Notes: a model not told the origin generated them from the sequence alone. DNA of 64,000 nucleotides from Candidatus Poseidoniaceae archaeon (GCA_049606035.1 JBMYVD010000001.1:34244-98243), one strand, 5' to 3'; counted from the stretch's first letter, positions 23,259 through 58,324 are shown. Program-made: numbers and translations.

Positions 23259-24089
23259 ATGGATGCGAACGACCTTCTCGCAGTCTCACCTAAACTTCTT
23301 GCTCAAGCAATTCTGCACCGTAGAGAAAGGATTGCAGAGATGATTCCAAGCGATTTAGAAGAACGGAAGGAGGAGCTACAAACCGCTGAACCAATGGCTA
23401 AAAACGCCAGAGAAGAGCGCGACAAAATCAACTCAAAGGTAGCCAATTTGAAGAATGAAAGGAACACGGCACAGAAGGAAGCCCGTCAACTGTTCGAAAG
23501 GGCTAATGAGATTCGGGAACAACTCATTGCAGAAGGCGGATTGAAGAATCCAGACCCAAAGTGGGCAAAGGACAAATTGTCTGCGAAATTGCAATCTCTG
23601 GAAAATCAACTAGAAACAAGCGCTGGCACTCACAAGACCGAAGAGAAATTCATCAATGAAATGAAGTCTCTGATCAGAGAACATGAAGAATGGGTAGAGG
23701 AGAGAACATCATCACAGCCTCTTGTCAAAGAAATGAAAGATGCAAGGTCAAAGGCTCGAAAACTATTGGACTCTGCTCAGAAAGCGCACGATGCGATGGT
23801 TGAATTGGTAAAATCAAACGAGGAAATGCACGAATCTTACGTCAAGTGGGAAGATGCAAGGGCCAGAGCTAGGTCTCGTACATCGAGACTTGAAAATGCA
23901 CTAAGTTCCAGTCAGGACGCTTTACAGTTCTGGAAAAACAGAGTTGAGGAAGATAACTTCAACGACCTACTCACAGATTCGGTTAGAGTAAGAGAAGGAG
24001 GTCCTTCATCCAAATCAATTGCAAGAGCAAAGAAGGCCGAAAGAGAAGCAGAGGCTAAACAAAACTCAGCAGGAGTTGAGGAAGAATGA
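23259..24089 (+). CDS. Archaeal coiled-coil protein, COG1340-like, paralog B (start trimmed to MDANDLL to leave a divergent promoter region)
   Basis: Coiled-coil; KLSAKLQSLENQLETSAGTHKTEEKFINEMKSL central motif. Confidence 0.6.
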   Translation: MDANDLLAVSPKLLAQAILHRRERIAEMIPSDLEERKEELQTAEPMAKNAREERDKINSKVANLKNERNTAQKEARQLFERANEIREQLIAEGGLKNPDPKWAKDKLSAKLQSLENQLETSAGTHKTEEKFINEMKSLIREHEEWVEERTSSQPLVKEMKDARSKARKLLDSAQKAHDAMVELVKSNEEMHESYVKWEDARARARSRTSRLENALSSSQDALQFWKNRVEEDNFNDLLTDSVRVREGGPSSKSIARAKKAEREAEAKQNSAGVEEE

Positions 24090-26170
24090 GCGAAGTCTGC
24101 GAGATTACTGGATTGTCAAAGGGTGACGCGACAAAATTATCCTACCTACATAAGCACATTACTCAGGGTAGCGAAATACCAATTCCGGATGAAAAGTCAT
24201 TGAGTGGATTCATCAAACCTTTAGAGAACACTGTTTCCTCCAACAGAATCCACAACAGTGAGCAAAAGAGGAAAGATAGTTTGCTAAAACACTTAGAGAA
24301 AAGCATTGCTTCAAAGTTTGAGGGAGCAAAACTTTCTCCATTTGGCTCCGCAGAGAGCGGACTTTCCCTTAAAGGAGGAGATTTTGACCTGTGCCTACAA
24401 ATCCCGAACGCTGACGAAAAGAAAACCATCAAACGAATAGGTGGAATGCTAAGAGGTCAAGGTATGGAGAAAGTACAGACAATTACCAGAGCAAAGGTAC
24501 CTATAGTCAAGTTCATTGACCCTCGAAGTGGCCTAAATGTTGACATCTCAATCAACAATTCACTAGCATTGTACAACACTAAATTGCTATCTTCATACGC
24601 CAAAATGGACAAGCGAGTGAAGGATCTTGCAATTTGTGTTAAGCACTGGGCCTTACACAGAAATGTTTCAGATTCGGTAAATGGAACACTATCATCATAC
24701 GCATGGTCAATCCTTGTAATCAACCACTTACAAGAGCAACAGGTGATCCCAAACCTGCAAAGTGGAGAGGATAGAACCATAATCGAGATAGACGGAAAAG
24801 AATTTGACATTACAGTGAATGAAGATGCTTCTCTTGCTCAACCAAGTCAACAAAATATCGCAGAATTAGCAATGTCATTTTTCAGAAATTATGCAACGAA
24901 GGACTGGGAAAATGAAGTGATTTCTATTCGAAATGGTAAATCCATCTCAAGAGACGAAAAGGGATGGATGAATGAAAATCCAACAGCACTAGAGATTTAC
25001 AACAGCGATAAGGAAAATCCGGGAAAGATGGGAGAGCACCATCTAGCTATTGAAGACCCATTTGAGACCGACCATGACCTGTGCAGGGTTGTTCGCGCCG
25101 AAGGTGAATTACGGATTAGAAATGAATTACTCAGGGCTGCAGAGTTGTTTGGAAGCGGCTCTACTTGGAAGGAAATCTGCGAAACCGTAGACGCTGATAG
25201 ATTGAAAGGCATGGAACCAGTTGACATTTTCCACGATCTGCGTGATAAAAACGACGACTTGGTTAGAAACATGTTGGAGAAAACCAAAGCAGAAATGGAT
25301 GCCGTTGACAGGCTGATAGACGCATTGGAATCTGAGCGACAGTCCACACTTAGAATGGCTAAAGCAATGCGTGGAGTTATTGAGGAAACTTCAGACTTGA
25401 GGAAGGAACACAAAGCGATTATCACAGGCCTAAAATCCAGGAACAAAGAAATCGATGAAATCAAAGTAAAAAGAGACAAAATCAACTCTGACATCATCCT
25501 CCCAATACACATGATTGAGGATGAATTATCCAAAGTTTACAATAGACTTACTGAGGAATTAGACATCCACAGAGTTCCTTCTTTAGCCAAAGAAAAGGAA
25601 CAGTTTTCTTGGTTCATGGAATTGCAAGCAATGCACGGTAAGGCAAGAGAGGCAAGTGAACTCCATCACAGATTCGTCGAGTTGGTAAAAGAGCAGAAAG
25701 AGGAAATCAAGAAATTGAAGATTTATGAAACCAAACACGATGATGCAACCGCAAAACTGCTCCAAGATGAACCGATGTTAAAGGACAAAAACATCAACTC
25801 CAAGGAAGTCGGTTCTTACGACAGACGTGTTCACAATATTCAGAGGGCTTTGAGACAGAGGCGAGGGGAAATGCACAAACTTCGCCGAGAAGCTGGCCGT
25901 TTGGATGCTTGGCTGCGCAAAAAATCTGGCGACCAAAACCGTGGGAGAGGTCGTGGCAAAGGAAACCGCAGAGGCCAAAAACCGAGAGAAAAGAAAGAGG
26001 AGTCTGGCCCCATGACCCTGGGGGACATTTCCGGGTTACTATCTGGCATGGGTACAGGATCATCGAGCAAAAGAACAAGGAAGGTCAGTTCCAAGAAGGC
26101 TGGAATGCGCAAAATGGGCAACTTAGGTGCACACAGAGGCTCTAGAAGTCAATTCAAAAAGAAAGAGTGA
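24086..26170 (+). CDS. Cid1/GLD-2/Trf4-like terminal nucleotidyltransferase (Pol-beta NTase plus PAP/OAS1 substrate-binding domain) fused to coiled-coil and RG-rich basic tail
   Basis: FGSAESGLSLKGGDFDL; AKVPIVKF; NVDISINN; NTKLLSSY; VKHWA; GTLSSYAWSILVINHLQ; C-terminal RGRGRGKGNRRG. Confidence 0.8.
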   Translation: MSEVCEITGLSKGDATKLSYLHKHITQGSEIPIPDEKSLSGFIKPLENTVSSNRIHNSEQKRKDSLLKHLEKSIASKFEGAKLSPFGSAESGLSLKGGDFDLCLQIPNADEKKTIKRIGGMLRGQGMEKVQTITRAKVPIVKFIDPRSGLNVDISINNSLALYNTKLLSSYAKMDKRVKDLAICVKHWALHRNVSDSVNGTLSSYAWSILVINHLQEQQVIPNLQSGEDRTIIEIDGKEFDITVNEDASLAQPSQQNIAELAMSFFRNYATKDWENEVISIRNGKSISRDEKGWMNENPTALEIYNSDKENPGKMGEHHLAIEDPFETDHDLCRVVRAEGELRIRNELLRAAELFGSGSTWKEICETVDADRLKGMEPVDIFHDLRDKNDDLVRNMLEKTKAEMDAVDRLIDALESERQSTLRMAKAMRGVIEETSDLRKEHKAIITGLKSRNKEIDEIKVKRDKINSDIILPIHMIEDELSKVYNRLTEELDIHRVPSLAKEKEQFSWFMELQAMHGKAREASELHHRFVELVKEQKEEIKKLKIYETKHDDATAKLLQDEPMLKDKNINSKEVGSYDRRVHNIQRALRQRRGEMHKLRREAGRLDAWLRKKSGDQNRGRGRGKGNRRGQKPREKKEESGPMTLGDISGLLSGMGTGSSSKRTRKVSSKKAGMRKMGNLGAHRGSRSQFKKKE

Positions 26171-31227: not shown

Positions 31228-32043
31228 CATACCTTCTTTGCCAACCTTCCAACCTAATTCGGTTACTGGCGTATCATCTCTACACAGTGGGTTTGTGTGG
31301 TTTAAGTGGATGAATACTACTTCGCCATCACCTTCTCTACGCTCACCTAACATCTGTAGAGTTTGCTCAACGGGAGGATGTGGAACTTTACTCTGGTCAC
31401 GATGTTTGAGTTCATCTGCACTGTAGAATGTACCATCTATGAGTGCAATATCTACCTCTAAATGGTTCAACCACGCTCTCAAATCATGACCTCGTAGTGT
31501 TTCTTGCCATGTATCATGGTCAGGTAAGAATAGCAGAGTTTTCTCTGCCTTGATTAGATATGCATGCATATCAGATAACTCATCTCTGTGAGGGACTTCG
31601 ATTGCTTCAACAATTACTCCAGGTAATTGATACACACTTGCCACTCTAGGGATGAAAACTCCATCCGAGAGTAAAGTGGACCAGTGGGGTGTTCTCTCGA
31701 TTAGATCGAGCATCATCTTTGAGCAATACAAATTGACGCCTTTGGCTGCCATGGTTTCTTTCCCAAACAAACCCAAACCGTCGACGTGACCAATGTGGGC
31801 ATGAGTAAGGAAAACTGATTCCACTGAATTACAGCCCCAAATTCTCAGTTGATCACCAAGATGGCGGGTCGCTTCGAAGAGATGTTTACCACCTTCTGCA
31901 TCTGTTAAACCGATTGATACCGGATACCTCTGTTCAAGGTCTGAACAGCAATCACAACCCACCTGAGGAACTCCTCCATCTTGAGCAGAACCCAAGAGAG
32001 TGACTTCCACCACGAAGACCAACCTCAGATCCGGCGAACCCAT
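31210..32043 (-). CDS. PqqB-like metallo-beta-lactamase-fold protein (start trimmed to MGSPDLR)
   Basis: [36 protein letters not shown], terminal GMSFSL resemble PqqB. Confidence 0.6.
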
Positions 32044-35000
32044 TGACGGGTCGTTGGGTCTCGAGTATACCAAGCACCGCTTGAAGCAGGGTACTCCAAC
32101 CACTCATTTCCATCGCTTCGAATCGAGCCAACCTCGTACATTGTTGGCCCTGTCGGTGCAGCAGGTTGAGGCATAACAGCCTGATTACCTGGTAGCATTG
32201 CAGGGTCTGGAGAAGCCGCTTGCACAACAGGTTGAACACTTGGTTGCTGATATTGTGAATAATCAGGCTGAGCATTCATGTTTGGCATAGCAGGTTGGGC
32301 GTACATGTTAGGCATGGCTGGTTGGGCATTCATGTTAGGCATAGCAGGTTGAGATACTGCTCCTGCCAAGTTGATACCAGCGTCCCAATCCTTATCCTCT
32401 CCCTTTCCTCTTACCCTTGAGATAACCAAAGCGAGGACAATCAATGCTAGAATAACGCCGACAGATATGCCTCCGTATTTGAGAATACTTCCACTCGATT
32501 CTTCGATTACAGCTTCACAGCCGTTTTCCTTTGCAACGCCAGCAATCTCGGGGCATTCATCAGCATTCTTACCAACCGGGTTATCTCCAAATCCGTCCAT
32601 ATCTGTATCATTCCATTGACTGGATTCTTCAGGGAATGCATCAATAATATCGGCCCAGCCATCGTTATCTGTATCTACACATCCAAGAACATCTCCTTTG
32701 AATGAGAATCCTGTTTCATCAGGGCATGAATCTGGACTTGTTCCATCAGGGTTGTCTCCATATCCATCGCTGTCACTGTCTGCCCACTGAGTTGGGTCAA
32801 TCGGTTTCCAATCTGTACCCACTTCTGGGTCACCCCAACCGTCTCCATCATAGTCCGGGCAACCAACAACATCGATTGTTGAGTTTCCGTTTACAAGAGG
32901 ACAGTCATCATTTCCGTCTGCGATTCCGTCTTTATCTGTGTCAAGATATTCATCTGGATCCGAAGGGAATGCATCCATAAAGTCAGCCCAGCCATCACTA
33001 TCGCTGTCTGGACATCCGAGGATATCTTCTTGCCATGAGTCTCCTGGCAATGTTGGACATGCATCTTGATCTCTTGCGTACTGATAGTATTCACCGGGCC
33101 AGTTTTCATTTCTTTCAGTCCAAGAAAGGTTTCCGTAATTATCACCAAAACCGTCTTCATCCCAATCTGACCATTGTGTATTATCTGTTGGGAAAGCATC
33201 CGCACCGTCTTCTATTGTCCAATCATCATCTGCAGCGGAATATCCATCATTATCTGTATCTGGGCAGCCATACCTATCCAATACAGATGTTCCTGGAATA
33301 GAGATACAATCATCAGGAGTATTCCCCTCAGGGTTGTCACCATATCCATCCCCGTCTTCATCACTCCATTGAGTAGAATCTGCGGGAAGGTCATCGATGG
33401 AATCGGCCCAACCGTCACCATCGCCATCAGGACATGCCAAAAGACCACCCAGTGTTGAGTTTCCTGACTCTTGTGGGCATGAGTCCTCTAGGTCAGCATA
33501 TCCATCACTATCTGAATCAACACATCCTGTGTATGAACCTAGGTCGGAAGTACCTGCAACCTTGTTACAATCGTCTTCTGCATCGTTAAATCCATCTCCA
33601 TCATCATCTGAATCTTCATCGGCGTCTCTACAACCATCGCCATCGATATCATTTGATGAATCTGAAGTCCACCAATTTCTTGGAGGGGTGTACGAACTTA
33701 GGCAACCGTCATCTTCATCTTCAACTCCGTCATTGTCATCATCGGTATCTTCGCTTGAATCTTTGCAACCATCATTGTCGAAATCTGTGGTTGAATCGCT
33801 AGTCCAATTCCATGCACCACCTCTCGGGCAATCATCACCTGAGTTGTCAGTTATTCCATCATTATCATCGTCATTGTCACACTCATCGCCTGCTCCATCC
33901 AAATCTGAATCTGTTTGAAGTGGATTATTGGTGTTAGGGCAATTATCCTCAATGTCGATAACACCGTCGTTATCTGAATCCGCGTTGTTTATAGGGTCAA
34001 GGGACCAAATAACCAAATCCAATCCTGCACTGCTAGTTACAGATTGTGTTCCTTTGTTAATTGTTGATTGGAACGAGCCAAAGGCATACGGAATGTCGGT
34101 ATCATTGACCGTTAGGTCAGCAAAGAGGTCATCGGCTGTACTTCCTAAGTTTTCGACCCAATCCCAATCACCATTTGCAGTTAATTTAGCCATGTAGAGG
34201 TCAAGTCCACCATTAGATGTTGCATAATTAACTCCGAAATCTGCAGAACCTGATATTAATCCTCCCACCATTATGTCATCGTTTGAGGTTACTTCAACAG
34301 CATATGCTCTTTCTGTAGAGGCGCTACTACCTGCACTCACAGCCCAATCTGTTTGACCGTTGTTTGCAACTTTAACAACATAAGCGTCGCCATTACCCTT
34401 GTCTGTTAGTGTGTTTTGATTACCTGCATCCATCGAACCAAGGAACACACCACTGACGATTATATCGTCATTAGAGTTGATAGTGATATCTTCAGGGAGG
34501 TTGATCTCTCCTGCAGCGCCAACAAACCCTTTGACACTTTGAACCACTCCGCCCTGACTCCACTTCACTAGGATTGTGTCAGCCTGACTAAGAGCTTGAT
34601 GCGTTTTCCCATTTGCTGAAAATGTACCAGATGTTGTTCCTGTTTGCCAGATGTTACCGTATGAATCAACTACAACTCCTGATGAACGGTCATCACCGAT
34701 TCCACCCGCAGTAGAGACTGAGTTTGTTGTTCCAGAATTTGTATTAAAAATTCCCATAAACATCTCATTATCTGAACTAGTATGAGTTATTCCACCAAAA
34801 TCTGTTGGTCCTTGATGCGTCCCAACTACGACTAAATTTCCTGAAATTGGGTCAAAATCAATACCCGTAACAATGCTATTGTTGGAATCATTATTGGTTG
34901 CAGTACTGAATGAAGTTGCCCACAACCATTGGCCACTGGCGTCGAGTTTTGCTATGAAACCATCAAAATTTTGAGATTGTAATACTGGTGAATTTGATGA

Positions 35001-35444
35001 TGAGCCAAAGACTACCTGACCGAATACCGTTCCGCCAATGTAGATATCTCCGGCCAAATCGGTTGTCATGTCATTTATCAAGGTCAAGCCTTGAGTGGCA
35101 GAAGGCATTACTGCCCATTGCCAATTCCCTTGCTCATCAACCATAGCGACATATGAATCAGCATCCAAAAATTGGTTGTAACCTGATGTTGCTTGTAACT
35201 GAATTCCACCAAAATTTAGATTGTTTCTTGTATCACCTGCAACGACTATCCCTTGAGGGGTCCATTCAATCTCTGACCCATTTACGTGGCCTGTAGCTGA
35301 ACCTGCAGAAATGAGTAATTCTGGTTCAGAATCAGCAAAAAGCACTTTGTTAGATTCAGAAAGTTCACTGTAATCGGAAACCGCAAATATGCTGCTTAGG
35401 AAAATTGCTACTATCATCACGGATATGAAGCCACGCTTGCCCAT
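32025..35444 (-). CDS. Giant surface protein (see finding 32025..32420 for domain architecture)
   Basis: N-terminal signal/TM; GD.Y..K....G...W beta-propeller repeats; DxDxDGxxDxxDxCP repeats; [20 protein letters not shown]. Confidence 0.75.
32272..32355. repeat. About 27-bp tandem repeat (3-4 copies) inside the tail-coding region, encoding AQPAMPNM(N/Y)
   Basis: catgtt(t/a)ggcat(a/g)gc(a/t)ggttgggc repeated; seen directly. Confidence 0.6.
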
Positions 35445-51053: not shown

Positions 51054-51857
51054 TTGGCGATGCTAATGTCGAAGGTTTTCCAACGAAGTCTCCTGCCTAT
51101 GGTGCTTGTAACATTGATGCTCTTACCGGGCATCACTAATGCCTATCCAGACGGCATAGGGGCAGGCGGTCATTCTCACAACGGAGAAACTATCGATGAC
51201 GTCGCCAAAGAAGGTTGCTTATGCCACGGTGACCAACCGAGTAACGATGTCATGGTCCTCCTTGTTGGAGTCCCGTACACATGGGTTGCAAATGCAGAAT
51301 ATGACCTGAGGCTGGAAGTCATCGGCGGCCCAGATACAAACATGGGTGGATTCTCTGCAAGAGTCAGCGCTGGCGAATGGTCTGGCGACGGAGAAGCTTG
51401 GGGAGACGATGCTGCAACAAGGACACACCAATCACCCAACTCTAGAATTTTTGAACTAACATGGACCGCACCAGCCGACAACTCCAGCGGAACAACTGTC
51501 GACTTCTGGATTAGCGGGAATGCGGTTAATGGAGCAGATGGGCCTGCTGGAGATTATTGGAACCAAATTGTGTTCAATCTAATCGAAGCACCTGAGGATG
51601 ACAAGAGAGGAGATAGAACACTAATCGCAGGAAGCGGCACTCCAACAGCACCAGAGAGCAAGGCTGGAGAAATCGACATCTCGACACTCGGCGCTGGTTT
51701 CAGAGCTCACTGGCTTGGATTACTAGGATTCGGCGCCGTTATCGCAGTGATTGTATTCTGTGGACTTCTACTCAGATATGGATTCTCAACATCTTACAAA
51801 GGCCGCAGCAACTTGCTGAGACTGAGATACAAGATTAACAGAAGAGGTGACCAGTGA
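51054..51857 (+). CDS. Secreted protein with signal peptide and C-terminal TM anchor; His-rich region and CLCH motif
   Basis: Signal peptide, GHSHNGE..EGCLCHGD, C-terminal TM; first gene of the Rieske/cyt b cluster. Confidence 0.5.
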   Translation: MAMLMSKVFQRSLLPMVLVTLMLLPGITNAYPDGIGAGGHSHNGETIDDVAKEGCLCHGDQPSNDVMVLLVGVPYTWVANAEYDLRLEVIGGPDTNMGGFSARVSAGEWSGDGEAWGDDAATRTHQSPNSRIFELTWTAPADNSSGTTVDFWISGNAVNGADGPAGDYWNQIVFNLIEAPEDDKRGDRTLIAGSGTPTAPESKAGEIDISTLGAGFRAHWLGLLGFGAVIAVIVFCGLLLRYGFSTSYKGRSNLLRLRYKINRRGDQ

Positions 51858-52309
51858 TGGCTAAAGACACGATCACACAACTTCTTGAGAAGGTTGCTGC
51901 AGGAAAGGTGAGCGTCAAGGATGCTCGCACAGCTCTGGAAGATGCATCATTAACTGAAGAACAGATGGATGCTGCAATTAACCACGGAGTATTCAACCCA
52001 GCAGAACCCGGTACAGTAATTTCAGCATCTTTGGCTCCATCCGGTAAATCCGCTCTTACCATATTCTTCTTTTCTTGGGGAATTTTCTGGGCCCTGTACT
52101 GGTTTGGAACCATGCTATACGGGCTGCTCAACGGCTCTAGTTGGGACCAACAACAACTTTCCTACCACATGGCGATGGGTATTACAACCCTAATTATGAT
52201 GGGAATCATCTATCTGAAATTCGTGTTGCCTGACACAATTATCGTCAAGCACAGCCAAAACAAGTACATCCCTGAACATCAGAAGGATTGGAGAGAATAC
52301 AAGTGGTGA
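51854..52309 (+). CDS. Membrane protein (3 TM), hypothetical
   Basis: ORF track; translationally coupled (ATGA overlap) to the upstream gene. Confidence 0.4.
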   Translation: MMAKDTITQLLEKVAAGKVSVKDARTALEDASLTEEQMDAAINHGVFNPAEPGTVISASLAPSGKSALTIFFFSWGIFWALYWFGTMLYGLLNGSSWDQQQLSYHMAMGITTLIMMGIIYLKFVLPDTIIVKHSQNKYIPEHQKDWREYKW

Positions 52310-52313
52310 TATT

Positions 52314-53162
52314 ATGGACGACAGGAGATTAAGACCAGCACCATCACTAGAAGACTCAGTTTTAGGCTCCCTTGGAGAAGTTTCAGTCAACCGTAGACAA
52401 TTCATGCGCTACGGATTCAACGCTGCTGGTGGTGTACTAGCAGCAACCCTTGGAGCGTTAGGTTTCGCAGCGATTCTTATGCCTCCATCCGGTGGAGGAG
52501 GAGGAGACTCCTCGGTCCTATACTGGGCAAAGGGTCGTGAGGAAGAAGCATGGTATGGAGCAAAGCACCTACAACCAATGATGAAGTCTGATTTTGAAGC
52601 AGAAGCCGCCAACTCGAATGTCGGCATGGCTGGTGCTCAAGGTGTATGGAACGGTCTACCTGTAATCGTCAACTATGTACCTCACGCCGAGAACTCTGGC
52701 AAGCCTGTGGCAGACAACCTACCAAGATTCCAAGAAATGGCAGGTTACGACATCGGTGGCAACTACGTTGGCCATGCTACCGAATTCTTGCTTGGGAACT
52801 CGGAAGTATTCGACCCCAACAACAACCTAGTCATGAGTTTCGCAAGATGCACACACCTGTGTTGTATCCCAGGATGGCAACTTGTAACAAACACTCAGAC
52901 CGATGACAACTGGACACCGGGTGGTGGAGACGATGGTGGGAGCAAGATGTTCTGCATCTGCCACTCCAGCAGATTCGACCCTACTGCAATCGAGGTCAAC
53001 AGAAACGCAAACAGGTCAACTGGTGCTTCTTTCGAATACCTAGGTATTAGAAGAGCTGGTGGCCCTGCTCCTCTTGGACTACCAATCATTCCAATCATTA
53101 TGAACGGAGACACAATCGAAGCGTCTTCTGATTACACGGGCTGGTTGACCTACTGCGACTGA
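52314..53162 (+). CDS. Rieske [2Fe-2S] protein with twin-arginine signal
   Basis: NRRQFMRY Tat motif; CTHLCC and CICHSS Rieske boxes. Confidence 0.85.
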   Translation: MDDRRLRPAPSLEDSVLGSLGEVSVNRRQFMRYGFNAAGGVLAATLGALGFAAILMPPSGGGGGDSSVLYWAKGREEEAWYGAKHLQPMMKSDFEAEAANSNVGMAGAQGVWNGLPVIVNYVPHAENSGKPVADNLPRFQEMAGYDIGGNYVGHATEFLLGNSEVFDPNNNLVMSFARCTHLCCIPGWQLVTNTQTDDNWTPGGGDDGGSKMFCICHSSRFDPTAIEVNRNANRSTGASFEYLGIRRAGGPAPLGLPIIPIIMNGDTIEASSDYTGWLTYCD

Positions 53163-53171
53163 GGTGATTAT

Positions 53172-54038
53172 GTGAGCACAATTTTCTGGGTACTTTGGTT
53201 CTTCATAGCATTCATTATTGTCTTAATTGCGTTTACTTTGCGCAAGGAAAACGAAGAGATTCCTCGTAGAGAAATCCTACGTGCTGTTGAATCCAGCGGC
53301 AAGATGGGATTCGCTGAGCGTGCGTTCTTGTGGGTATTCTCATTCTTGGATACTAGATTTAGGATTCAAGACTACTGGAATATGTCAAAGGGTGCATACT
53401 ACAACATGCACAGGCAGATGCCACTTACACACGCAGAGAAATACAAGCTGCGAATTATTTGGTACTGGTACCCACTCTACTGCTTGGGTGGAATTTCATT
53501 CCTATCATTCATCATTCTAGTACTAACTGGAACCGTTCTCGGAATCTACTATGTCCCTGGTGGAGAGGGTGATCCATCCCCTGCATATGCGAGTATGCAA
53601 TTCATCATGACACAACTTCCGTTCGGATACATTATCCGTGCAGTACACCATTGGGGTACACACTTCATGGTAGCATCGGTATTCTTACACATGTGTAGAG
53701 TATACTTTACTGGTGCATACCGCAACCCACGTGAATTGAACTGGCTGATCGGTGTTGCCTTAATGGCACTAACAATTGTCTTCGGTTACTCTGGATACCT
53801 ACTTCCATGGGATACATTGGCTTACGGAGCTGCTGTTATCGGAATTAACCTAGCAAACGCTACACCATTGATTGGAAAGTACATCGCTACACTACTATTC
53901 TCTGGTTCATCCTTGTCCCACAGAACGGTAACACGAATGTACTTCATTCACGTGTTTATTTTGCCAGTTATCGTTACAACTCTAATCATCATACATTTGT
54001 TCATTGTATGGGTTCAAGGAATAGCGGAGCCGCATTGA
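53172..54038 (+). CDS. Cytochrome b, N-terminal (heme-binding, b6-like) half
   Basis: HHWGTHFMVASVFLHMCRVYFTGAY and SLSHRTVTRMYFIHVFILP His ligands; GTG start per track. Confidence 0.85.
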   Translation: MSTIFWVLWFFIAFIIVLIAFTLRKENEEIPRREILRAVESSGKMGFAERAFLWVFSFLDTRFRIQDYWNMSKGAYYNMHRQMPLTHAEKYKLRIIWYWYPLYCLGGISFLSFIILVLTGTVLGIYYVPGGEGDPSPAYASMQFIMTQLPFGYIIRAVHHWGTHFMVASVFLHMCRVYFTGAYRNPRELNWLIGVALMALTIVFGYSGYLLPWDTLAYGAAVIGINLANATPLIGKYIATLLFSGSSLSHRTVTRMYFIHVFILPVIVTTLIIIHLFIVWVQGIAEPH

Positions 54039-54054
54039 TACAGGAGGAATAAGT

Positions 54055-56859
54055 TTGGGAATTATAGACAATTTTGGAGCAGTAGCATCCTCGTACATGG
54101 ATCAAAAAGAGCAGTTGCAATCTGCTGAAGAAAAGCGTAAGCGTACTCGTGAAGGACACGGATTCTGGCCTCATGAAGTTCTACGTGACAGCCTTATCTT
54201 CGGATTCATGATATGTACACTTCTATTCTACGCATGGTTAATTCCACCACCACTTCACAGTGCAGCGGACCCATTCGCTCAAGCAGGATTCGTTTTCCCT
54301 GACTGGTATGTACTGTTTTCTTACGGTTACCTGCGATGGGGGGAATATCTACCTCAATTTGACGTACCTTTAGGGCCAATTGGTGATTTCTTTGGACAGC
54401 CATCGTTCCCATGGAACGCTGCATGGTGGGGTGCTTTCCTAACCGGAATCCCTGTCGGTATTCTAGCACTACCTCCTTTCTTGGGCGGTCGCGAAAAGAG
54501 ACCTGTTGAAGACCCATGGTTTGCTAGTGCTGGTGTAGTTTACTTAGCTCACATTTGGTTCATTTCAGTATTCTCTATCAACATCTTCCTTGAATTGTAT
54601 GGAAAGAATAGAAGCGACTTCTGTAAGTTAGACAGCCACGGCGATTTACTATGTGGTGTAAGGGATCCGTGGATTGCTGATTTATTCAATATGATACCCT
54701 GGGTAATGACAGGTATTCTTCTCTGGATAATGATCTACTTCATCGCTAAGTGGCTATTCAACAACGCATGGGGTGCAAGATTCACTCCAGCACACGGTAA
54801 GAAACTCATCGTTGGTGCTTTCATTGTTGCAACCGCTGCAAGCGTTGTTACATACCCGGTATACGATAACGGATTCTGGGATGCAAGGGGACTCTTAACA
54901 ATCTCAGATTACGAGAAATTGGAAGAGATGAGGTCGCAACCAACCGATGTTCAAGTAAATGAGAGAACTGAATTCATGGACCTACAAGGATTTGATGGAG
55001 ACATAGTTCCGGCAGCTGCATGGATGGATTGGAACATATATCAACCGACGCGGTATTATCTCATTGATTTCTCAGACAATAACGGACATCAAGATTTAGA
55101 TTCTGGTGTAAATGGCAAGTCTGGATTACAGAATTATTCTGCTGATGAAACTGTATGGGCTACCGGTTCATTCATCATCACTGATGATTATTGGCCTGAA
55201 GACAACGACTTCACTACAGTACCTTTAGACGCTACGTGCGCTACCAGAGCGAGTGAAGTCCTAATCGATGGGGGAGATTCAACCTCTGGAATGATTCAGT
55301 CAAGCCTAGTTATCACCCAAAGAGACAGTGGCGACGTTGTAGTCGACACTGATTGTAATACAGGAGAGTTAGGCGTGGAACTGGCATCGGGTACATACGA
55401 CTACGAGTTCAAGGTAGAATCAACCGATGGCCTAAGAGCAAACAACACAGTTACTGTTGAAACCTTATTCACAATTCAAGCATTCCAGCCACTTCTTCTC
55501 TATGATGACGATGCTGGAAACGGCCTTGCTGGAATGACTGTTGACCTATCTAACTCCCTAAACATGGAGTTAGAAGGTGAGAATATGGGAGTTATGGTGA
55601 ACCCAACTTACCACACCAACCCTCTAGCATTGGATGCTAAGTTGACTTATGCAATGTTCATCCCATGTATTACCGCAGGTGCAATCACATTCGTGGTATT
55701 GAGAAACATGGCTCGTGGATACGAGTTCGAAATGAACAAGTGTTACGGCTGTGACCTGTGTGATGATGCATGTCCAGTCAGACTCTTCAATGCTGGTGAC
55801 AAGTTGAACATCATTTACAACTCGTGGAATAACGAAGACGATGGTGTACCGCTGTATTCGTGTTTGACATGTACTGCATGTACAAACGCATGTCCACAAT
55901 TGGTCAACTACGATTCATACGTTGACATTCGCCGCTCACTTATCGTTGGTGGCCCGGCTGCTGAAATCCCTCACACTGTCCTGCAAGCAGTACTAGCTGC
56001 AGAAGCGGAGGAAGAGAGTGACGCTGATTTCGTCTCAGTCGAAGATTATCCAATCGATTCAAACATTGGCTACTACCCAGGATGTGTAGACTACCTAGAC
56101 CAAGAGATGGTATTCAGCCACCTAAACGAAGGCTCGATGGACCTAGGAGAAACCACAACTGCAGCATTCACATTATTCGAGGAGATGGGAACAGATGTCT
56201 CATATCTCGGACGTGACTTCCTGAAGTGTTGTGGGCACGACCAGAAGTGGCAAGGTCTTGATGAAGTGTTTGACAAACTCAAGGCATACAACCAGAAGAA
56301 GATCGAAGCATCCGGGATTGACACACTAGTTTCCTCATGCGCTGAATGTTTCAGAACATTCGCTCGTGATTACGAATTAGAAGGTGTCAAAGTCATGCAT
56401 ACAACAGAATTCCTAATCGAAAATGGATTCGACATGCAACTGAAGGCAGAGGATGAATTGACGGTTACCTATCACGACCCATGTAGACTAGGTAGACAGA
56501 TGGGAATCTATGATGAACCACGTGAACTAGTTGCTGGAGTCGAAGGTGTTGAACTTGTAGAGATGGAACACCATGGCGAAGATGCAATGTGCTGTGGAGT
56601 CTCAAGCATGATGTCTTGTAATGAGAACGCTCGTGCACTGAGAGTATCCAGAATGGAGGAAATCCGCAACACTGGCGCAGACATGATGATTACATCCTGT
56701 CCAAAGTGTGTATCTCACTTTGAGTGTCTCAAGTTCGAAGGCGACGAAAGGCATGACATCGAAATCCTTGATGTTGTATCATTCCTAGCACGCCAGGTTG
56801 AAGCAAAGAAGTCACTTGCTGAAGAAGCAAGTACATCGAGAGTTTCTGTTGAAGCTTAA
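54055..56859 (+). CDS. Fusion: cytochrome b C-terminal half (subunit IV-like, 5 TM) plus extracellular domain plus TM plus HdrD/GlcF-like domain (2x[4Fe-4S], 2xCCG)
   Basis: PDWYVLFSYGYLRW; CYGCDLCDDACP, CLTCTACTNACP; YPGC..CCGHD..SSCAEC and HDPC..MCCGVSS..TSCPKC. Confidence 0.75.
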   Translation: MGIIDNFGAVASSYMDQKEQLQSAEEKRKRTREGHGFWPHEVLRDSLIFGFMICTLLFYAWLIPPPLHSAADPFAQAGFVFPDWYVLFSYGYLRWGEYLPQFDVPLGPIGDFFGQPSFPWNAAWWGAFLTGIPVGILALPPFLGGREKRPVEDPWFASAGVVYLAHIWFISVFSINIFLELYGKNRSDFCKLDSHGDLLCGVRDPWIADLFNMIPWVMTGILLWIMIYFIAKWLFNNAWGARFTPAHGKKLIVGAFIVATAASVVTYPVYDNGFWDARGLLTISDYEKLEEMRSQPTDVQVNERTEFMDLQGFDGDIVPAAAWMDWNIYQPTRYYLIDFSDNNGHQDLDSGVNGKSGLQNYSADETVWATGSFIITDDYWPEDNDFTTVPLDATCATRASEVLIDGGDSTSGMIQSSLVITQRDSGDVVVDTDCNTGELGVELASGTYDYEFKVESTDGLRANNTVTVETLFTIQAFQPLLLYDDDAGNGLAGMTVDLSNSLNMELEGENMGVMVNPTYHTNPLALDAKLTYAMFIPCITAGAITFVVLRNMARGYEFEMNKCYGCDLCDDACPVRLFNAGDKLNIIYNSWNNEDDGVPLYSCLTCTACTNACPQLVNYDSYVDIRRSLIVGGPAAEIPHTVLQAVLAAEAEEESDADFVSVEDYPIDSNIGYYPGCVDYLDQEMVFSHLNEGSMDLGETTTAAFTLFEEMGTDVSYLGRDFLKCCGHDQKWQGLDEVFDKLKAYNQKKIEASGIDTLVSSCAECFRTFARDYELEGVKVMHTTEFLIENGFDMQLKAEDELTVTYHDPCRLGRQMGIYDEPRELVAGVEGVELVEMEHHGEDAMCCGVSSMMSCNENARALRVSRMEEIRNTGADMMITSCPKCVSHFECLKFEGDERHDIEILDVVSFLARQVEAKKSLAEEASTSRVSVEA

Positions 56860-56920: not shown

Positions 56921-57712
56921 ATGGATTACGACAGTCTTACTCTTCTTGAACTCAAGACAGTGTGCAAAGACAGAGGTCTCAAGGTTAGTGGTAACAAGGC
57001 TGAAGTCGTAATCAGACTAATGGAAGATGATGAATCAAAAATGCCTCAGTCTGTGTCTATTCCTCAACAGCAAGTCAATTATGGTCAGCAGCAAATGTAT
57101 GGACAACAGATGTATGGCGGGCAACCTCAACAAATCTTCATCACAAATAACACAACCAGTGTGGTTCAAATTACTGGATTCCTAATCATCTTATACGGTT
57201 TGTTTAGGCTCTTTTGGGGGATGTTCGCTGATGAAGACGAATACTTCTTTGTCTTATTTATCGGAACAGCGTTCATTTTCAGTGGGATACTATCTGTTCA
57301 AGGGTACCGAGTTGGACTGTATTTCGCCTTGATTACCCTAGTCATTTCGGGATTGCTTTCGCTCATCTATATCGACAAACAAGGCAGCTTTTTGTCAGTA
57401 GGACAAGGGACAGGTGAAGGATCGGTTGGTTTCTCATTATTCTGTTCAGGATTCTGTATGCTAATTGTAGCATTACCATTACTAACTGCAGATCCCTCAA
57501 ATTTCAGAGATGGTTCGCCAAAATATCTCAGATCGTTAATCGATACAGCAGATTGGTTCTCACCGATACCACTGCTGTGGGGAGGTAGAAAAGACGTTGA
57601 AACCAAGATAGTCATCAATTGTGCACATTGCGACGCACCACTGAAAGTACCAAGTGATTACAAGGGCAAAGTAAAGTGCCCAACATGTGAAGAAAGATTC
57701 GAAATCGAGTGA
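56921..57712 (+). CDS. Membrane protein with N-terminal SAP motif, Q-rich linker, 4 TM, and C-terminal MJ0042-type zinc ribbon
   Basis: LTLLELKTVCKDRGLKVSGNKAEVVIRLMEDD; QQQVNYGQQQMYGQQMYGGQ; INCAHCDAPLKVP..KCPTCEERF. Confidence 0.6.
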   Translation: MDYDSLTLLELKTVCKDRGLKVSGNKAEVVIRLMEDDESKMPQSVSIPQQQVNYGQQQMYGQQMYGGQPQQIFITNNTTSVVQITGFLIILYGLFRLFWGMFADEDEYFFVLFIGTAFIFSGILSVQGYRVGLYFALITLVISGLLSLIYIDKQGSFLSVGQGTGEGSVGFSLFCSGFCMLIVALPLLTADPSNFRDGSPKYLRSLIDTADWFSPIPLLWGGRKDVETKIVINCAHCDAPLKVPSDYKGKVKCPTCEERFEIE

Positions 57713-57714
57713 TT

Positions 57715-58002
57715 TCAGGGTTCCTCTTCCATTCCTCTAATCTCATAATTTGAGGGGAATAAAGCGACAATCACACCTGCAATTAGGAAACCAAGACCCA
57801 TACCAAACTCCTGTTGAACAAACAGGAATTCTAGTGCGAATACCACTAGAAGAAGTCCACCAATATTTGACACCCAAACTAGAGTCTTGAATGTCGATAG
57901 CGAAACTCCTGTGGTATTAGCTCCCCTCTTTGGACCAAATTCTCCTCCGAATCTTTGTGCGCCTTCATGTTCTGGTTGTTTTGACATAATATCACCTATC
58001 AA
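57715..58002 (-). CDS. Small 2-TM membrane protein, hypothetical
   Basis: ORF track; two hydrophobic helices. Confidence 0.3.
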   Translation of the reverse strand: MIGDIMSKQPEHEGAQRFGGEFGPKRGANTTGVSLSTFKTLVWVSNIGGLLLVVFALEFLFVQQEFGMGLGFLIAGVIVALFPSNYEIRGMEEEP

Positions 58003-58324
58003 TCATAGTAATTGCATCTGTTGGACATGCTAGCACACACAACCGGCACCCTGTGCAAGCATCTCGAATAATTCTCGCTTTTCTGTTGCTTGGAACTTGA
58101 AGTAGTGGAGAAGCCATGTCCTTGAAGTACAGTTCAATAGCATCATCATCGCATACTATTGTGCATTGATCACATCCAATGCACAGGTTCTCTGTAACCC
58201 AAGCAACAGTTCCCTCGCCACCTTTGATAGTGGACCTTCTCTCACCTTTTTGCCTGGCAAGAGAGATAGCGATTCGCTCAGCCTCAGCTTCGCGACGCTT
58301 GGCCAAATCATCACGAGTGGTCAT
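57992..58324 (-). CDS. 2x[4Fe-4S] ferredoxin-like protein
   Basis: CIGCDQCTIVC and CTGCRLCVLACP motifs. Confidence 0.7.
   Translation of the reverse strand: MTTRDDLAKRREAEAERIAISLARQKGERRSTIKGGEGTVAWVTENLCIGCDQCTIVCDDDAIELYFKDMASPLLQVPSNRKARIIRDACTGCRLCVLACPTDAITMIDR

Follow-up and report, generated by a model that had tools for sequence, protein, structure and literature searches.

A conserved subunit IV-ectodomain-HdrD-like fusion protein in the Rieske/cytochrome b operon of MGII archaea

Introduction

Cytochrome b6f and the Bacillus-type bc complex divide cytochrome b between a b6-like protein with four helices and four His and a subunit IV (PetB and PetD; QcrB and QcrC). Their Qo site carries a P(E/D)WY motif, the anchor of the Rieske protein is PetC-like, and the genes follow the order Rieske, cytochrome b, subunit IV. 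These features are shared by the MGII locus described here, which differs in lacking both the CxGG motif with its haem cn and a cytochrome c or f gene, and in having two extra transmembrane (TM) helices. Subunit IV is also fused to a redox domain in Bacillus QcrC; there the fused cytochrome c domain faces the outer (p) side, whereas the MGII protein combines a predicted n-side domain of four Fe-S clusters with an outer β-sandwich.

A cytoplasmic protein with two [4Fe-4S] and two CCG motifs, attached to a membrane cytochrome b, is likewise found in HdrDE, DsrMK, HmeCD and TmcBC. The cytochrome b of those complexes is a di-haem, NarI-type protein which communicates with the quinone pool and has neither a Rieske protein nor a Qo site, whereas the MGII partner is a Rieske/cytochrome b6 module, no Hdr, Dsr or Tmc model was passed, and the host is aerobic. 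Mycobacterial EtfD (PDB 9ojn) combines TM helices, cubane clusters and CCG clusters in a single polypeptide, as does the MGII protein (PMC13083937). Electrons pass in it from ETF through D1, D2, D3 and D4 to haem b and menaquinone by way of CCG-bound and cubane clusters, and a C(T/S)G substitution in motif 1 gives a non-catalytic cluster (PMC13083937). EtfD and related ETF:menaquinone oxidoreductases are electron wires to quinone in aerobes, and their C(T/S)G motif 1 recurs in MGIII orthologues of the MGII protein. The likeness to MGII is one of soluble domains: EtfD has its own 5-TM mono-haem b domain and no Rieske/Qo machinery, whereas the TM part in MGII is subunit IV-like, motif 1 remains CCG where EtfD has C-T-G, the CxHC histidine (His583) has no equivalent (CAEC versus CPHC), and etfAB neighbours were not found.

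We know of only two Rieske/cytochrome b systems with a proposed n-side link to soluble low-potential carriers, namely b6f in cyclic flow and the anammox complexes. The first proposal concerns ferredoxin/FNR-linked cyclic flow into b6f (PMC5600118), the second Rieske/cytochrome b complexes whose cytoplasmic subunits are linked to NAD(P) (PMC12954380). These links are made by haem cn with bound FNR or by separate flavoprotein subunits, and neither includes a covalently fused HdrD-like domain.

For soil Thermoplasmata, Diamond et al. (2022) named hdrD-like and rnfB-like genes beside complex III as a possible ferredoxin entry point (PMC9038741). That statement, one sentence on Ca. Angelarchaeales, concerns the same gene neighbourhood and the same ferredoxin-entry idea as the present analysis; the sentence describes neither a subunit IV fusion nor the single-polypeptide MGII form with an ectodomain. 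Orphan RnfB-like genes and an 'MGII-specific complex III' were reported by Tully (2019; PMC6336850). The subunit IV-ectodomain-HdrD-like design of MGII is conserved and almost undescribed, only one passing mention of such a system having been found in the literature.

Operon and gene order

The window analysed was a stretch of 64,000 nucleotides from a Candidatus Poseidoniaceae archaeon (GCA_049606035.1, JBMYVD010000001.1:34244-98243), and coordinates are counted from its first nucleotide. The conserved operon order is anchored ectoprotein, small TM protein, Rieske protein, cytochrome b, fusion protein, ferredoxin and small TM protein.

The operon opens with the ectoprotein gene (51054..51857, + strand), the product of which contains a 'choice-of-anchor V' domain (NF041895 at 6.4e-21). 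The protein consists of an N-terminal signal/TM segment, an Ig-like β-sandwich and a C-terminal TM helix with an invariant basic tail; G-C-x-C-H (aa 54-58) and His123 are also invariant. The fold of its AF2 model matched generic Ig-like domains only. Synteny of this gene was kept in 29 loci, and in other MGII genomes as well. No CxxCH protein (cytochrome f, c1 or other c-type acceptor) was found in the operon, which has instead this ectoprotein, a candidate P-side partner of the Rieske protein. Between the ectoprotein and Rieske genes a gene for a 151-aa membrane protein with weak DUF7318 similarity is conserved (51854..52309, + strand).

The Rieske [2Fe-2S] protein (52314..53162, + strand) matched TIGR01416 at 4.8e-9, with a score under the model cut-off, and a PF00355 search gave no match. 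Both cluster boxes are present as CTHLCC (aa 179) and CICH (aa 214), which conform to CxHxxC and CxCH. The protein also has a twin-arginine signal (RRQF at aa 27), a TM anchor like that of b6f PetC (match to 1q90_R) and a poly-Gly hinge.

The adjoining gene (53172..54038, + strand) encodes a b6-like cytochrome b N-half of 288 aa (PF00033 at 5e-43, PF13631 at 2e-38). Its four haem-ligand histidines (His159/160 with His173, His260 with His275) bear out the initial reading of a four-helix N-terminal half with His pairs; the helix D spacing of x14 is of b6 type, and there is an additional N-terminal TM helix. Helix A reads ...LVLTGTVLG... without Cys, so that the CxGG attachment motif is absent, haem cn is not expected, and the n-side entry used in b6f would consequently be missing. 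A subunit IV-type gene lies immediately 3' of the Rieske and cytochrome b6-type genes in the window, in 40 of 43 archaeal loci and in loci L081-L083.

Downstream are genes for a 2x[4Fe-4S] ferredoxin of 110 aa (57992..58324, - strand; Fer4_21 at 1.9e-13) and for a 2-TM protein of 95 aa (57715..58002, - strand), which follows the ferredoxin gene in other MGII genomes too. Twenty-two loci had a ferredoxin homologue downstream, as had other MGII genomes (loci L081-L084). In other MGII, MGIII and soil Thermoplasmata the ferredoxin gene directly follows the fusion or CCG gene in the same orientation, whereas in this window it is inverted and separated from the fusion gene by an inserted gene. The MGIII partner is a flavodoxin-ferredoxin fusion.

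The fusion protein

The fusion protein of 934 aa is encoded by a single uninterrupted ORF (54055..56859, + strand) with no internal stops and a TTG start 7 nt 3' of GGAGG. It is composed, in order, of a subunit IV-like domain, two extra TM helices, an extracellular β-sandwich, a sixth TM helix and an HdrD-like Fe-S domain. Six hydrophobic segments were found (42-60, 126-144, 157-175, 207-225, 248-266 and 530-548), in agreement with the five TM helices, extracellular region and sixth TM helix proposed in the preliminary description. The last segment (55642..55698, + strand) would bring the chain back to the cytoplasm. The conserved Cys pairs fall in predicted outside loops only, and the Fe-S domain has no export signal. 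With helix E starting on the n side and six TM segments following, the topology argument holds, and the Fe-S domain is predicted to be cytoplasmic, as had been proposed.

The N-terminal part (54055..54864, + strand) comprises helices E, F and G of a subunit IV or cytochrome b C-half homologue and the two additional TM helices. The Qo-site motif PDWYVLFSYGYLRW (54298-54339, + strand) includes an invariant PDWY at aa 82-85, in register with the PEWY/PDWY of cytochrome b and QcrC, and an invariant Cys pair (C190, C200) lies in an outside loop. That this ORF begins with a subunit IV-like C-half was borne out by its relatives but not by a direct search, since the window sequence itself gave no match to PF00032 (Cytochrom_B_C) even at E<=10. 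Eight of 12 aligned family members matched that model (best E 1.5e-13), the relative at locus L020 scoring 24.3 bits against a cut-off of 20.7. When the family profile was compared with solved structures by hmmsearch, it matched cytochrome b residues 234-380 at 1.2e-11 and b6f subunit IV at 9e-7; comparison with the N-terminal domains of Bacillales QcrC by hhalign gave a probability of 99.2% (E 1.4e-19). By these relatives' and profile matches, homology to the cytochrome b C-half and subunit IV is established.

The extracellular domain of ~260 aa (aa 267-529; 54853..55641, + strand) is acidic, with 47 D/E against 11 K/R, and holds no recognisable cofactor motif. AF2 placed a β-sandwich at about aa 330-515, for which the best fold matches were GOLD, PHM and C-CPE-like sandwiches (E ~4e-4, low TM-score). 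The sequence is variable, few residues being invariant (C395, C434 and H345 among them), and the domain is specific to MGII. It is an MGII-specific insertion, probably with a structural or docking role.

The C-terminal domain has the two ferredoxin-type [4Fe-4S] motifs and two complete CCG motifs that had been noted. The former, CYGCDLCDDACP and CLTCTACTNACP (55729..55899, + strand), are of the form CxxCxxCxxxCP, lie at aa 563 and 603, are invariant in the family and scored above the cut-offs of Fer4_8, Fer4_9 and Fer4_10. PF02754 matched at 9e-25 in two stretches, corresponding to CCG motif 1 (C677, C725-C726-G, C762, C765; 56083..56349, + strand) and the invariant CCG motif 2 (C810, C846-C847-G, C882, C885; 56482..56709, + strand; best stretch 804-889). 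All ten cysteines are complete and invariant in MGII. Motif 1 reads KCCGHD in 113 of 113 MGII homologues and CSG or CTG in 12 MGIII-type loci.

Among solved structures, the soluble domain was most closely related to M. smegmatis EtfD (9ojn_A, 1e-24 to 2e-27). No cut-off was passed among the curated equivalogs for HdrD/HdrB, DsrK, TmcB, HmcF, GlpC, GlcF, TfrB and LdhH; the best score was that of TfrB (114.6 bits, cut-off 385), and all others were far under theirs (CoB_CoM_SS_B 16 versus 345, DsrK 36 versus 400). The nearest relatives outside the family likewise passed no curated functional subfamily. A NarI-type di-haem cytochrome b partner (HdrE/DsrM) is absent, the partner genes being those for Rieske and cytochrome b6.

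Conservation in Thermoplasmatota

The same fusion was sought in MGII and other Thermoplasmatota genomes, and more than 110 full-length MGII homologues were found (901-969 aa, 60-87% identity, 98-100% coverage). They came from independent Poseidoniales assemblies (ENA, JGI, NCBI, Tara and Logan) and formed one 50%-identity cluster; called genes of 920-926 aa were present on contigs of 47-155 kb.

A split state was found in ~27 non-MGII Thermoplasmatota genomes. Here, in MGIII and soil Thermoplasmata, subunit IV is fused to the dicluster domain, while the CCG module has an overlapping ORF of its own, after which comes a gene for a ferredoxin or flavodoxin-ferredoxin. Short, fully fused forms were found as well, with lengths of 543-789 aa. 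In all of these the gene directly follows those for cytochrome b and Rieske. The MGII fusion represents one arrangement within a broader Thermoplasmatota system, where the CCG part frequently has a gene to itself. Because the fusion is conserved and has subunit IV-dicluster relatives, the Fe-S module appears to be a genuine, ancient subunit of a Rieske/cytochrome b complex of Thermoplasmatota type.

Discussion

The 934-aa protein is best read as the subunit IV (PetD/QcrC equivalent) of a b6f-like Rieske/cytochrome b complex of Poseidoniales, in which the Rieske protein, the split cytochrome b and subunit IV would form a quinol-oxidising Qo site (PDWY) on the outer face. On the cytoplasmic (n) face, the C-terminus would contribute four Fe-S clusters arranged in an HdrD-like chain, with two cubane clusters beside the membrane and two CCG-bound clusters distal to it, as in EtfD and HdrDE. 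We infer that this chain and the conserved neighbouring 2x[4Fe-4S] ferredoxin most likely act as a wire that connects low-potential carriers of the cytoplasm with haem bH or with the quinone site Qi. On the sequence evidence this reading has about an even chance of being right, input of electrons being likelier than output. In the favoured direction, quinone at Qi would be reduced with the help of reduced ferredoxin-type donors, much as in the cyclic flow that ferredoxin feeds into b6f through haem cn or in the supply of electrons to menaquinone by EtfD.

The same architecture and ferredoxin synteny are compatible with flow in the opposite sense, by which quinol bifurcation at Qo would send the high-potential electron through Rieske towards oxygen and the low-potential one through bL, bH and the Fe-S wire to ferredoxin or flavodoxin. 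This would amount to quinol-driven production of low-potential reductant in the cytoplasm. It has a precedent, as a hypothesis, in the anammox R/b complexes whose extra cytoplasmic redox subunits would make NAD(P)H (PMC12954380), and the MGIII partner has an FMN (flavodoxin) domain. We nevertheless consider output unlikely, since transfer from bL to bH and beyond opposes the membrane potential and runs towards much lower potentials; moreover, MGII are described as aerobic heterotrophs (PMC6336850), in which a surplus of reduced ferredoxin would be expected rather than a shortage.

The Fe-S domain could instead serve as the subunit at which one particular cytoplasmic dehydrogenase docks and delivers its electrons, for example ETF, a GlcD-type FAD oxidase or an SdhAB-like enzyme; this is modelled on GlcF, GlpC, SdhE, LdhH and EtfD, in which electrons pass from flavoenzyme to quinone. 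The best NCBIfam similarities (TfrB C-terminal part, LdhH, GlpC and GlcF) and the top PDB match to EtfD agree with such a role, and 13 soil Thermoplasmata loci have two GlcD-like FAD-oxidase genes 2-4 kb downstream. Those genes, however, are neither adjacent nor on the same strand, and MGII and MGIII loci lack them. As no etfAB or sdhAB genes adjoin the operon in the window or in loci L081-L084, and the universally conserved neighbour is a ferredoxin, a dedicated dehydrogenase partner seems improbable.

The preliminary description had suggested that a Rieske/cytochrome b module joined to a heterodisulfide-reductase-like domain might serve a cytoplasmic thiol/disulfide or another acceptor. The joined architecture stands and is conserved, whereas the case for a thiol/disulfide acceptor is weakened. 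The CCG clusters would by analogy reduce a cytoplasmic (hetero)disulfide or DsrC-like protein via the b haems, as a counterpart of HdrDE or DsrMK with cytochrome b6 and subunit IV as its scaffold. Both CCG motifs are complete in MGII, as in catalytic HdrB/HdrD, and the PF02754 match was accompanied by weak matches to HdrB, DsrK, TmcB and HmcF models; yet the Hdr, Dsr, GlpC and GlcF cut-offs were all missed, EtfD is the nearest relative, and the operon has a ferredoxin as its conserved neighbour and no CoM/CoB or DsrC context. The CSG/CTG of orthologous MGIII modules, as in non-catalytic EtfD, argues against obligatory disulfide chemistry, and open clusters of Hdr type would be expected to be O2-sensitive (PMC13083937) in an aerobic host. 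Quinol:disulfide oxidoreductase activity thus appears very improbable.

A frameshift joining petD-like, surface-protein and hdrD-like genes, to which the separate CCG ORF of other Thermoplasmatota might point, is effectively refuted by the independent full-length homologues, the genes called on long contigs, the intact frame and the conserved TM helices that bridge each junction.

The preferred reading is one of electron input. The design probably ties a quinol-oxidising respiratory complex directly to cytoplasmic ferredoxin-type electron carriers, and if electrons do enter by this route, the MGII complex would, besides acting as a quinol oxidase, give catabolic reducing power a second point of entry.

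Operon and core subunits

The operon, read on the + strand, opens with the gene of a 267-aa anchored ectoprotein (51054-51857), followed by genes for a 151-aa small TM protein (51854-52309), a divergent 282-aa Rieske protein (52314-53162), a 288-aa cytochrome b6-type N-terminal half (53172-54038) and the 934-aa fusion protein (54055-56859). The 288-aa protein matched Pfam PF00033 (5e-43) and PF13631 (2e-38), with haem ligands at His159/160 and His173 in helix B and at His260 and His275 in helix D; the CxGG haem-cn motif was not found in its sequence. The Rieske protein has a twin-arginine signal (RRQF), the cluster boxes CTHLCC and CICH, and an anchor and poly-Gly hinge resembling those of b6f PetC.

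The ectoprotein is of the 'choice-of-anchor V' type and combines an Ig-like β-sandwich with a TM helix at the C-terminus. Its basic tail is invariant, as are G-C-x-C-H (aa 54-58) and His123. It had no match among PDB sequences, and a fold search with its AF2 model returned generic Ig-like matches only, the DsbD N-domain among them, with no cofactor family assignable. It could be the electron acceptor of the Rieske protein, an analogue of cytochrome f, c1 or CbsA.

Domains and topology of the fusion protein

The fusion ORF opens with a TTG codon, seven bases downstream of GGAGG, and runs without an internal stop. Six TM segments were identified from hydropathy (42-60, 126-144, 157-175, 207-225, 248-266 and 530-548). 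A 263-aa acidic loop (47 D/E, 11 K/R, two Cys) lies between TM5 and TM6, and TM6 is followed by a 386-aa tail with 20 Cys.

The N-terminal part had been described from the sequence as the C-terminal half of cytochrome b. The N-terminal ~270-282 aa of the window protein alone gave no match to PF00032, and an MGII-only profile gave a borderline match to solved cytochrome b/subunit IV in the PDB (E ~0.07). Distant relatives from an exhaustive representative search were added to this family (alignment A3), of which 8 of the 12 members matched PF00032 (best 1.5e-13); the A3 profile matched the C-terminal half of solved cytochromes b (residues 234-380; 1.2e-11) and b6f subunit IV (9e-7). Alignment to the subunit IV part of Bacillales QcrC using hhalign gave a probability of 99.2% (E 1.4e-19), and in profile comparisons the invariant PDWY of the A3 family was in register with PEWY/PDWY of cytochrome b, subunit IV and QcrC. 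Because of these matches and the aligned PDWY, the N-terminus is, as judged from sequence comparison, a subunit IV homologue (helices E, F and G) with two extra helices. The description thus held through the family profile, and the core is of the Rieske/cytochrome b family (b6f/Bacillus-type), though the window's own subunit IV misses the single-sequence threshold of Pfam.

The outer loop was modelled by AlphaFold2 as a β-sandwich, with pLDDT 80-95 over ~190 residues and 73 overall. Its only Pfam match was Cadherin-like at 0.19, the fold search with the model returned only generic β-sandwiches (GOLD, PHM, C-CPE; E>=4e-4, TM<=0.3 on query), and no cofactor motif was recognisable in the loop.

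The tail carries the ferredoxin-type motifs CYGCDLCDDACP and CLTCTACTNACP and two complete CCG motifs, C677..C725C726G..C762xxC765 and C810..C846C847G..C882xxC885. It matched PF02754 in two stretches (9e-25), and Fer4_8/9/10 passed their cut-offs, in accord with the Fe-S/CCG domain of the preliminary description. The predicted cytoplasmic position of this domain also accords with four observations that agree. In every solved complex, helix E of subunit IV starts from the n-side; the chain, having crossed the membrane six times, ends on the n-side again; the predicted outside loops hold one invariant Cys pair each (C190/C200 and C395/C434); and no export signal was found on the Fe-S domain. The Fe-S/CCG domain would therefore be cytoplasmic (n-side) and the ectodomain outside.

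Conservation and distribution

A search of 5.8 billion proteins yielded >110 homologues of 901-969 aa, at 60-87% identity and 98-100% coverage, from ENA, JGI, NCBI, Tara and Logan, labelled Poseidoniaceae, Poseidoniales or Thermoplasmatota. Clustered at 50% identity, all of the 934-aa family falls into one cluster. Fusion genes of 920-926 aa were called on contigs of 47-155 kb. A frameshift joining separate genes, raised earlier as a possible artefact, was ruled out by these genes and the uninterrupted homologues of the same length. The window is archaeal, encoding RNA polymerase A'/A''/B, FttA and FtsZ, and its GC content does not shift along the region, giving no hint of recent transfer.

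Elsewhere in the window, 24086-26170 (+) encodes a 694-aa protein with a Cid1/MTPAP-like poly(A)/terminal nucleotidyltransferase palm (1.8e-31) and PAP_assoc (7.6e-13), a eukaryote-like family unusual for an archaeal genome. Two ORFs, 20738-23161 (-; 807 aa) and 32025-35444 (-; 1139 aa), had no Pfam match at E<=1e-5.

Outside the 934-aa cluster, proteins of 543-789 aa were found in which a subunit IV-like N-terminus (LPDWY[LF]LW) is joined directly to the Fe-S/CCG domain without the ectodomain. Scanning a single genome from each species yielded 43 archaeal loci and 37 Bacillales qcrC loci. The archaeal hosts are MGIII/Poseidoniia, soil Thermoplasmata (including MAGs with names in the style of the Angelo reserve study), RBG_16_67_27, uncultured 'Methanomassiliicoccales', Halobacteria MAGs and Hydrothermarchaeota. 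One 5-kb contig (CAXGWP010000033.1), labelled 'uncultured Nitrosomonadaceae bacterium', holds a complete MGIII-type archaeal operon and is probably mis-binned.

Local tblastn gave a constant order, [ectoprotein]-[small TM protein]-Rieske-cytochrome b-subunit IV::Fe-S. In ~27 genomes the subunit IV ORF stops after the dicluster (2x[4Fe-4S]) domain and the 2xCCG part is a separate ORF in another frame, overlapping the stop; in certain lineages subunit IV stands alone or carries the dicluster only. The best case for the Fe-S module being a genuine subunit of the Rieske/cytochrome b complex is this mix of split and fused states, which in every instance occupies the place of petD. In two Halobacteria MAGs (L020 and L042, 5965-7011) subunit IV is fused to the dicluster only (336-348 aa), with no CCG module detectable in 6 kb downstream.

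Relatives of the Fe-S domain

No curated equivalog was passed by the Fe-S domain: TfrB scored 115 bits where 385 were required, and the LdhH, GlpC, GlcF, DsrK, TmcB, HmcF and HdrB models fell far under theirs. Placement in a functional subfamily through the nearest non-family relatives failed, since each of these is an uncharacterised HdrD-like protein joined to one or another input module (MvhD-like, GltD-like), and none passes an equivalog cut-off. The tail thus has the domain composition of HdrD, yet by these scores lies outside every characterised subfamily.

The sole strong solved relative was M. smegmatis EtfD (9ojn_A; 1e-24 to 2e-27), in which two CCG-bound clusters and two cubanes wire ETF to haem b and menaquinone (PMC13083937). 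The EtfD CCG clusters are shielded and non-catalytic, with Thr instead of the second Cys in motif 1 (PMC13083937). In 113/113 proteins of MGII, and also in soil Thermoplasmata, motif 1 reads KCCGHD; in 12 MGIII-type loci it is KCSGHD or KCTGHD.

Partner genes

Close downstream and in the same orientation, 22 loci have a gene for a 2x[4Fe-4S] ferredoxin homologous to the one encoded at window 57992-58324. Further MGII genomes (L081-L084) likewise have the ferredoxin gene behind the fusion gene and, after it, a gene for a 95-100 aa TM protein, both on the strand of the fusion gene. In the window this pair is inverted (57715-58324, -), and an inserted gene for a SAP-domain, 4-TM, zinc-ribbon membrane protein (56921-57712) separates it from the fusion gene, which indicates a local rearrangement. 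In MGIII the gene after the CCG ORF (L006 7945-8934 and equivalents) encodes a 329-aa fusion of Flavodoxin_1 to a 2x[4Fe-4S] ferredoxin. In soil Thermoplasmata loci (L021 5046-7974, L014 11290-12780 and 11 more), genes for one or two GlcD-like FAD-linked oxidases (PF01565+PF02913) lie 2-4 kb downstream on the opposite strand; they were dropped as a general partner dehydrogenase, not being present in marine loci.

Proposed electron route

The core is b6f-like and has a Qo-type motif; joined covalently to its subunit IV, on the predicted n-side, is a four-cluster domain, and a ferredoxin gene is conserved in the neighbourhood. The first cubane motif is ~10 residues past the last TM helix; the cubanes would lie beneath the membrane, close to haem bH/Qi, and the Fe-S chain may trade electrons with the ferredoxin. 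We lean towards the view that Thermoplasmatota, MGII among them, may have a third kind of Rieske/cytochrome b complex, wired on the n-side through an HdrD-like chain to ferredoxin, as either a ferredoxin-assisted Q-cycle machine or a quinol-bifurcating ferredoxin reductase. The former may combine ferredoxin:quinone and quinol:acceptor oxidoreductase within one complex.

Electron input, from a ferredoxin-type donor through the Fe-S chain to bH/Qi and quinol, is favoured because MGII are described as aerobic heterotrophs (PMC6336850), EtfD works in that direction, haem cn, the entry point of ferredoxin electrons in b6f (PMC5600118), is absent here, and ferredoxin entry at complex III was suggested independently for soil Thermoplasmata (PMC9038741). 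Electron output, with ferredoxin reduced by quinol bifurcation, has a precedent in a hypothesis for anammox complexes (PMC12954380) and appears unlikely. That the module docks a specific cytoplasmic dehydrogenase is more doubtful still, the GlcD-like oxidase genes being missing from marine loci. True disulfide reduction by the CCG clusters is improbable, since the KCSGHD/KCTGHD motif of MGIII-type loci predicts that Hdr-type two-cluster cleavage is impossible for at least part of the orthologous family.

Significance

Few energy converters have been studied as well as Rieske/cytochrome b complexes, and on the n-side the only variations known to us are, in b6f, haem cn/FNR and, in anammox bacteria, hypothetical flavoprotein subunits. 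The nearest precedent for subunit IV fused to a redox domain is Bacillus QcrC, whose domain is, in contrast, a p-side cytochrome c. Accessible surveys of Rieske/cytochrome b diversity made no mention of a fusion to an HdrD-like domain. MGII genome papers report only a non-canonical, MGII-specific complex III (PMC6336850). In the full-text literature outside subscription-only papers, an hdrD-like gene beside an archaeal complex III came up only once, in a single sentence on Angelarchaeales (PMC9038741). The fusion architecture is real, widespread and essentially undescribed, with a putative role in electron transfer.

Genome surveys call the 'complex III' of these Thermoplasmatota incomplete or lineage-specific (PMC6336850); the finding therefore fills a gap in the respiratory-chain model of globally abundant archaea, the complex occurring in Poseidoniales (very abundant in the surface ocean), MGIII and soil Thermoplasmata. 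The range of split and fused forms, from subunit IV alone to those with dicluster, with CCG and with ectodomain, offers a natural series for studying the recruitment of a redox module. If the proposal is true, the four-cluster HdrD-like module and its dedicated ferredoxin would be a new link of the Q cycle to cytoplasmic low-potential carriers, a mode of coupling so far demonstrated for no bc/b6f complex.
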